Source: Escherichia coli
Lineage (GTDB): Bacteria; Pseudomonadota; Gammaproteobacteria; Enterobacterales; Enterobacteriaceae
DNA: 64,000 nt
Assembly (NCBI RefSeq): GCF_003334815.1
Contig: NZ_QOWO01000023.1
Reading direction: 5' to 3' (one strand)
The translations under genes were made by a program, and so were the position numbers. How positions within the stretch are numbered: the first letter of the stretch is position 1; each line of letters opens with the position of its first letter. The notes beneath the pieces are model-generated. The model ran no database searches and had not been told where the DNA came from. It saw only the letters and a list, made by a program, of their open reading frames with translations. Shown here piece by piece: positions 46,983 to 47,367 of the stretch.

Positions 46983-47367
46983 ATTTAATGAAGCATCTAT
47001 CGCCGGTTGCGATGCTTTGCTGAACGCAGCCTGAGCCTGCAATTGTTTGTCGTCCATAATTTAACCTTCATTTGATGTTGAATTGAACATATCAAAATCA
47101 GGCAATTACACAAATCTATGTACAGGCTCCATCAAGGGTAAAGCGTGATTTATCTGAAGTCGAGTTCGAGTCAACAATGAAGCGTAAGCGTTTTATGTAG
47201 AACGCCTGTGCGGTGAGTTCAGGTTCCGGGGAAATAGTGTCCATCCTTTTAATGGACACTATCATGGGCAATGGCTCTGTCACATTAACAACTACAGTTG
47301 CTGACCAGCCGGATGGATGATTTTTTTGCACCCAGAAGACGTTGCCTCCGATCCGGCTTACAACAAG

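Follow-up and report, generated by a model that had tools for sequence, protein, structure and literature searches.

Introduction

In the insertion sequences (IS) IS200, IS10 and IS50, hairpins hide the ribosome-binding site of the transposase, as a leader stem-loop in the first case and through fold-back inhibition in the other two. Here we analyze a perfect palindrome located between the convergent genes cvrA and dadX of Escherichia coli, in a stretch of 64,000 nucleotides from contig NZ_QOWO01000023.1 of assembly GCF_003334815.1 (hereafter the window, whose positions are used throughout). In our reading, which we consider likely, this palindrome derives from the leader of an IS66-family element and has survived in a decayed accessory island; its hairpin would limit translation of tnpA in the live element and stand at the 3' end of dadAX in K-12. 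Like the leaders of IS200, IS10 and IS50, the IS66 hairpin stands directly before the start codon of its operon, with a presumed Shine-Dalgarno GGA in its 3' arm, and lies inside the element near the end, so placed that read-in transcripts would contain both arms. It differs from them in that the first gene of IS66 is the accessory tnpA and not the DDE transposase.

At steady state, Rho-terminated transcripts of E. coli end just past stable stem-loops without U tracts, which block 3' exonucleases (Dar and Sorek 2018, PMC6061677), and the IS3-family elements IS1397 and ISKpn1 insert specifically into the loops of repetitive extragenic palindromic (REP) sequences, or palindromic units (PMC1525189). 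The dadX case shares with the former a stable hairpin that lacks a proper U tract, a steady-state 3' end shortly past the stem and a downstream read-through that is sensitive to bicyclomycin, and differs in that its stem-loop, predicted to be protective, was supplied by a dead IS in an accessory island. A 1420-bp element described below likewise belongs to the IS3 family and sits in the spacer of a palindrome, whereas its target is not a REP but the IS66 leader palindrome, plus one look-alike within a gene.

Results

An IS66-family left end in the cvrA-dadX spacer

The repeat finder returned two arms of 11 nt (47234-47244 and 47252-47262), 100% complementary and separated by a 7-nt spacer, as had been described in an earlier note on this DNA. 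The palindrome lies 252 nt past the cvrA stop and 106 nt past the dadX stop, in agreement with the distances given in that note, and the second inverted repeat that it mentioned after dadX is also real, with perfect 8-nt arms at 47307-47314 and 47351-47358 and a gap of 36 nt. A dinucleotide shuffle of the 64 kb is expected to yield 0.165 palindromes with perfect arms of 11 bp or more and a loop of 3-10 nt, and 11% of shuffles contain one or more; the window holds three perfect palindromes of this class. Taken alone, the palindrome is judged just mildly unlikely by chance, and its non-chance status is shown by homology, not by statistics.

As RNA, the plus strand of the palindrome folds at -16.0 kcal/mol (z -2.2), and the minus strand forms a 13-bp hairpin at -18.4 kcal/mol (z -4.6). 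The stem has 4 G-C pairs and is followed by UUUCCCC on the minus strand and CAUGGGC on the plus strand, and thus does not have the G+C-rich stem plus U tract of an intrinsic terminator. The absence of a T-tract on either strand had been asserted before and was nearly right, as the minus strand carries this short U run but no proper tract; a terminator scan of both strands of 46800-47600 found no terminator-like site. Neither did a promoter scan of the window spacer give a match at the palindrome, and a scan of 46500-47900 against Rfam 15 returned nothing beyond chance-level matches, with E values of 1 or more, to snoRNA and lncRNA models of eukaryotes.

The palindrome does not belong to a dispersed repeat. 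Further copies of the 11-mer, for which a search had been proposed, do not occur in the 64-kb window, and of 5,426 E. coli genomes, 4,297 carry the surrounding 111-bp segment, generally once (median 1 copy, maximum 2). This occupation of a single place sets it apart from REP sequences and bacterial interspersed mosaic elements (BIMEs). The REP consensus is of the type GCCGGATG, to which the palindrome is unrelated.

A blastn search of plasmids with a leucine-rich repeat (LRR) gene found at this locus in other strains plus its downstream DNA gave an unexpected block of matches, all within L003:2554-2637 (window 47180-47263), with 77-83% identity over ~84 bp (E ~1e-7 to 1e-12) in Pantoea, Serratia, Enterobacter, Klebsiella, Edwardsiella and Raoultella, with up to eight matches per record, many of them located under "IS66-like element accessory protein TnpA". 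Three of the matched loci are complete elements of ~2,675 bp, with tnpA (657 nt), tnpB (348 nt) and tnpC (1572 nt), terminal inverted repeats GTAAGCG.../...CGCTTAC and, in L004, an 8-bp target duplication (GGAATTAC). By NCBIfam, their TnpC scores 463 bits as an IS66 family transposase (cut-off 180), and their TnpA scores 233 bits as an IS66 TnpA (cut-off 150). In an alignment with these elements (A2), K-12 matches from the first G of GTAAGCG (47184) through the last palindrome base and is unrelated beyond. The stump 47184-47263 is ~80% identical to the left ends of the complete IS66-family elements; its terminal repeat GTAAGCGTTTTATGTAGAACGCCTGT starts at 47184 and fits the pattern GTAAGCGNNNNANNTAGAMCGYCTGT common to them, and the published description of the family, terminal repeat included, agrees with it (PMC12888890).

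With the GTAAGCG repeat and left-end homology to three-gene elements, the stump resembles the IS66 family members ISCro1, ISEc8 and IS679; it differs in being a fragment and not an element. None of tnpA, tnpB and tnpC is left in the window stump, the translation after the palindrome being unrelated to TnpA, and neither a right-end repeat nor an 8-bp target duplication was found for it. Its closest relatives are an unnamed Serratia/Pantoea/Enterobacter IS66 subgroup, and not ISCro1 or ISEc8: ISCro1 has a TnpA ~60% identical to that of these relatives and a terminal repeat GTAACCGG..., with almost the same palindrome. The interval 47184-47361 was considered as a miniature, two-ended IS66 derivative and rejected. 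The true IS66 right end reads ACGGTCT...GACGCTTAC, and the window has a faint ...CCGGCTTAC at 47354-47361 which agrees only in GCTTAC and has no target duplication (flanks aatgaagc versus aacaagtt). The island boundary coincides exactly with the end of this supposed right repeat.

In an independent relic from Rosenbergiella (L019), the homology to complete IS66 elements also stops at the 3' edge of the palindrome. The E. coli and Rosenbergiella relics suggest that the palindrome may be a preferred deletion endpoint.

The hairpin across the IS66 family

IS66 left ends were collected by DNA-pattern scans anchored outside the palindrome, which gave 14 genome loci and 19 true metagenome loci, after exclusion of 6 of the 25 metagenome matches as chance, and these resolved into 27 distinct left-end variants, all with the stem. 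A pattern search of genome contigs built on the TnpA alignment produced 284 matches, none of them confirmed by tblastn. Among 19 representative left ends, 96.2% of the cells pair, compared with 21-50% for slid partners. Two stem pairs are changed on both sides (G-C to A-U and U-A to A-U), and the covariation score is 0.116 versus 0.072 in shuffles, with 1 of 500 shuffles as high.

The loop is a T run of 7-12 nt among IS66 copies, the upstream GTG within the 5' arm, which is annotated as the start, is broken off from the frame in several of them (by TAG in the Pantoea stewartii copies and by a frameshift in L032), and the TnpA family profile begins at residue 3 of the protein started at the downstream G/ATG; therefore, the palindrome does not code for protein, and the real tnpA start follows it after 3-4 nt. 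Only the left end has it, the right end consisting of ~30 bp after tnpC with no half-site, and the same hairpin is present in IS66 copies without any LRR gene nearby.

More distant members, with TnpA identity down to ~31-37%, have a different sequence and again a hairpin just before the tnpA start, ~50-80 nt from GTAAGCG. Those folded were ISCro1, ISEc8, L052, L053, L055, L057 and a Burkholderia element; the eight z-scores obtained are all negative (-1.0 to -4.2), and in 6 of the 8 folds GGA lies in the 3' arm, 8-9 nt before the start codon. The use of G.U wobble pairs as a guide to the functional strand was abandoned, since early cases favored the plus strand and ISCro1, L037 and L040 showed the opposite.

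In complete relatives of the stump, the 3' arm carries the sole Shine-Dalgarno-like motif (GGA), 8-9 nt upstream of the tnpA start codon, and the 5' arm is complementary to it. Such a hairpin would sequester the ribosome-binding region of tnpA and limit its translation, particularly on read-in transcripts; if the transcript of the element itself starts within the 3' arm, much as that of IS50 starts inside its hairpin, the IS66 hairpin would form only on read-in transcripts and would amount to a protection from outside activation. By analogy with the leaders mentioned above, the most likely role of the hairpin would be to hold down tnpA translation by hiding the ribosome-binding region. An antisense RNA of the RNA-OUT kind, ending at the hairpin, was also considered and dropped, as promoter and terminator scans of the spacer and of two complete IS left ends gave nothing at the palindrome and no minus-strand promoter in favor of such an RNA.

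The palindrome in the dadAX 3' untranslated region

The spacer is 100% identical to that of E. coli K-12 MG1655, and published transcript ends were placed on it with the map K-12 = 1287317 minus window, derived from ymgM and verified against the sequences printed in Adams et al. In one study of RNA 3' ends (the TRS study, PMC10687069), dadX is given a "Distant primary" terminus at 1240088 (range 1240083-1240095), which lies 140 nt beyond its stop, and the authors folded the same 13-bp hairpin at -17.4 kcal/mol. On the window this terminus falls 5 nt past the palindrome stem. The proposal in the earlier note that such a dyad might be an RNA processing site is supported to this extent, on the dadX strand: a transcript end, the kind of feature that the note suggested mapping, is present in published data. 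The Term-seq data of Adams et al. 2021 place 3' ends at 1240019/1240020 (PMC7815308), at the base of a proximal structured region that lies upstream of the palindrome in the dadX direction.

A Rho termination region at 1240513 has been published for the dadX strand, with a score of 43 and p = 3e-70 (PMC7815308); coverage there drops from 392 to 9 in the absence of bicyclomycin, whereas in its presence the two values are 303 and 300. It corresponds to window ~46804 on the minus strand, antisense to the 3' part of cvrA, and is among the stronger Rho regions of the neighborhood. These coverages imply substantial convergent transcription into cvrA under Rho inhibition.

The features of a protective stem-loop are found together here: a stable hairpin, no U tract and a published steady-state 3' end 5 nt past the stem. 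Transcription of dadAX would pass the spacer, with Rho stopping RNA polymerase inside antisense cvrA, and 3'-to-5' exonucleases would then trim the RNA back, pausing at the IS66 hairpin and subsequently at the proximal structure. The 3' end and the Rho dependence are themselves published, and the hairpin is the most likely cause of the end at 1240088. Most likely, then, the relic acts in K-12 as a stem-loop that protects the 3' end or as a weak terminator.

A decayed accessory island

The homology of K-12 to the B2 strain NC101 breaks at 46990 and resumes at 47362, which makes the interval in between island debris; its parts are listed in Table 1. In MG1655 the annotated genes of the region are ldcA, cvrA, dadX and dadA, and the spacer shows only a pseudo "hypothetical protein". 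The mobile-element origin of the palindrome and the gene relics around it had gone unrecognized in the earlier note.

Table 1. Coordinates of the features discussed (window positions unless stated otherwise).
Feature	Position	Strand	Basis or remark
cvrA (K+/H+ antiporter)	45246..46982	+	convergent with dadX
Accessory-island wreck, 371 bp	46991..47361	.	K-12 homology to NC101 breaks at 46990, returns at 47362
IS256-family (IS1414-like) left-end fragment	47029..47129	-	inverted match to L003:568-666
LRR gene 3' remnant: last 24 codons plus TAG stop (47198-47200)	47127..47200	+	alignment to L003
IS66-family left-end relic	47184..47263	+	blastn 77-83% identity, alignment A2
dadX RNA 3' terminus, NC_000913.3 1240088	47229	-	PMC10687069 Supplementary Data 2-4
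Perfect palindrome ATAGTGTCCAT-ccttttA-ATGGACACTAT	47234..47262 (K-12 1240055-1240083)	both	sequence, repeat finder, RNA fold
98 bp of no identifiable origin	47264..47361	.	matches none of the fetched IS loci
Term-seq 3' ends, NC_000913.3 1240019/1240020 (+ strand there)	47298/47297	-	PMC7815308 Supplementary file 1
dadX (catabolic alanine racemase)	47368..48438	-	3' untranslated region crosses the island wreck
IS3-family element	L007:4061-5480 (E. coli MS1050), inserted at window 47248		also L017, L051, L058-L065

Island-bearing strains have ~2.2 kb at the spacer, with an open reading frame (ORF) of 478 aa on the cvrA strand (L003:1138-2574 in strain GDSC2227PM, our L003) whose position amounts to an insertion between window 47126 and 47127. 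The encoded protein has leucine-rich repeats of the YopM/SlrP/SspH/IpaH type and no ligase domain, according to PDB, NCBIfam and Pfam matches, and is annotated mostly as hypothetical and occasionally as "putative type III effector". At least 80% of this LRR gene is present in 822 of the 5,426 complete E. coli genomes (~15%), while ~3,280 keep only its last 71-116 nt. The last codons (RKRFM*) and the stop are encoded by the IS66 terminal repeat; the IS66 insertion capped the LRR gene. As its C-terminus was supplied in this way, the original LRR gene may have been longer.

Some 1,120 genomes, such as that of NC101 (L048), have no island, and only 56 bp separate the stop codons of cvrA and dadX in them; the island is missing from B2 strains in general. 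The island takes the place of 42 bp of this compact spacer, and most non-B2 lineages are of the island type. The compact NC101 spacer (L048:2951-3006) contains one hairpin, CGCTGGAT...ATCCAGCG, which in strains without the island could serve both convergent genes. Conservation of the dadX-side dyad, which the earlier note had proposed to check, is accordingly partial: it is found in most E. coli and absent from those ~1,120 of 5,426 genomes without the island at the locus. The right arm is perfect in 3,238 genomes and has a single A-to-G change, giving a U.G pair on the plus strand, in 400; by themselves these counts are no proof of selection.

The block 47029-47129 is inverted with respect to LRR-bearing strains and is 93% identical to plasmid IS1414 left ends, overlapping the start of the transposase coding sequence. 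ymgM, a small ORF, has been listed between dadX and cvrA at NC_000913.3 1240260-1240463 (PMC6001520), and its printed sequence is the window minus-strand ORF 47057-46854. The start codon of ymgM is that of the IS1414-like transposase (MDDKQLQ...), and the rest of the ORF extends into the 3' end of cvrA in antisense direction; ymgM thus looks like a chimera made by IS debris. A literature search on ymgM gave nothing useful.

On the minus strand, 47264-47361 folds into a structured region that contains the repeat 47307-47314/47351-47358. Within it, 20 nt (GGCTCTGTCACATTAACAAC) agree at 17 positions with L009:10218-10237, the sequence next to a truncated IS66 terminal repeat of Pantoea stewartii, on its downstream side. 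This match and the ...CCGGCTTAC end at the island boundary may be due to chance or to an unknown companion element.

An IS3-family element in the palindrome spacer

The loop of the dadX-side relic carries an IS3-family element in E. coli strains MS1050, E700025 and JNE21-003. The element is 1420 bp long, with ends TGAACTGCGCCCC.../...GGGGCGCAGTTCA and duplications of 3-4 bp, is inserted in either orientation, and has no specific name in the NCBI annotation; it occupies 483 places in the E. coli collection and 274 in plasmids. All 11 copies examined are inserted between the arms of an inverted repeat of the form GTGTCC(A)...(T)GGACAC: 10 in IS66-family leader hairpins of several subgroups and the remaining one in a look-alike, GTGTCCA-N11-TGGACAC, inside a DMT transporter gene. 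Apart from the dadX-side relic, the targets include ISCro1 on a Salmonella plasmid, ISCro1-like elements in E. albertii and E. coli, Serratia/Pantoea-type IS66 elements in Buttiauxella and Yersinia, and an L055-type IS66. In Scandinavium, the invader of an ISEc8-like element is a relative with 76% identity to the IS3-family element, and the L016 loop keeps a 19-nt footprint of the right end of the 1420-bp element. The pattern looks like palindrome-targeted transposition of the kind known for IS1397 and REP sequences.

Discussion

The identification of the palindrome as part of an IS66 left end bears directly on how it could act. The leading idea of the earlier note, a site for a dimeric host regulator of dadX, cvrA or ymgM, draws on a perfect dyad of a size typical for operators and on its perfect form in 3,238 genomes versus 400 with one G.T-type change. 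We give it almost no credence: the dyad lies downstream of both convergent genes, was imported with an insertion-sequence end, is absent from ~1,120 E. coli genomes that retain dadAX and cvrA, and has no second copy in the window or the genome, while no regulator for it is known or was found. To judge from its inheritance, the dyad did not arise as a regulatory site of the host. It is also very improbable that the dyad is the 3' stem-loop, terminator or stabilizer, of the deleted LRR effector-like gene, even if only 34 nt separate it from the relic stop codon and its fold on that strand reaches -16 kcal/mol. The stop and last codons of that ORF lie inside the IS terminal repeat, which assigns the hairpin to the IS and not to a terminator of the LRR gene itself; moreover, the hairpin is also found in IS66 copies with no LRR gene in the vicinity, no U tract follows the stem on the plus strand, and no LRR homologue was seen with the hairpin but without the IS66 terminal repeat. 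The main rival for the live element is that the dyad acts within the IS at the DNA level, as an operator or promoter of tnpA bound by a dimeric IS protein or as a subterminal transposase site. The arms are strongly conserved, distant members included, which retain the core GTGTCC/GGACAC, the symmetric half-site changes would also suit co-evolution with a dimer, and TnpA presumably contains a helix-turn-helix; in addition, most IS66 copies have a TTTAAT/TATAAT-like hexamer where the loop meets the 3' arm, and in P. stewartii the dyad is spanned by a perfect TTGACA and a perfect TATAAT with 15 nt between them. Nevertheless, we regard a DNA-level role as unlikely, given that copies that look intact differ in the distance between half-sites (7 to 12 nt), unlike a fixed-spacing dimer site (a variation that also speaks against the host regulator), that the right end without a half-site does not fit a symmetric end-binding site, that L055 has GTGGAC as a direct repeat yet keeps the hairpin, and that a promoter scan with spacers of 16-18 nt finds none across the dyad.

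For K-12, the nearest competitor of a protective stem-loop is a weak Rho-independent terminator of dadAX, with release in the UUUCC after the 13-bp stem. The stability of the dadX-strand hairpin, the three U that follow it and the mapped 3' end 5 nt beyond would all suit such a terminator. We consider it rather improbable, since the scan is empty on both strands, the stem has only 4 G-C pairs with only 3 U after it, and with Rho inhibited the downstream coverage equals that upstream (303 versus 300), which speaks against efficient intrinsic termination anywhere in the spacer.

Several points weigh against a leader hairpin that limits tnpA translation and was retained as the 3'-end stem-loop of dadAX. 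The translation-control role is argued from anatomy and analogy, and a literature search returned no published experiment on any IS66-family leader hairpin. The covariation is modest and the left-end copies are close relatives, while stem pair 4 appears as G-C, G.U, A-U and, in ISCro1, A.C. A promoter may also overlap the dyad. On the side of K-12, the Term-seq list of Adams et al. has no end at the palindrome and that at 1240088 comes from a single study; the Rho score, being computed over 800-nt windows, does not indicate where the read-through RNA begins and cannot tie the signal to dadX read-through alone; some of the read-through RNA may come from an IS1414-derived promoter for ymgM; and the short U run after the stem leaves room for some intrinsic termination.

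A broader reading, which we put forward tentatively and with somewhat less than even expectation, is that the IS66 leader palindrome is both a family-wide gate on tnpA and a dedicated landing site for the IS3-family element, and that the stump beside dadX is still a landing pad while having been co-opted as the hairpin of the dadAX 3' end.

The locus does not reveal a new kind of system, but a fragment of a known family that behaves like a known class of 3'-end stem-loops. Its analysis explains the unannotated 385-bp convergent spacer of K-12 as a graveyard of mobile-element ends, namely those of an IS1414-like element, an LRR gene tail and an IS66 left end. The distal 3' end of dadAX at a hairpin donated by a dead IS is a small example of how mobile-element debris can shape a host 3' untranslated region. 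Beyond K-12, the stump draws attention to a leader hairpin that is conserved in the IS66 family and seems to have escaped study, and to an IS3-family element with strong specificity for it, a by-product that may matter more than the main finding.

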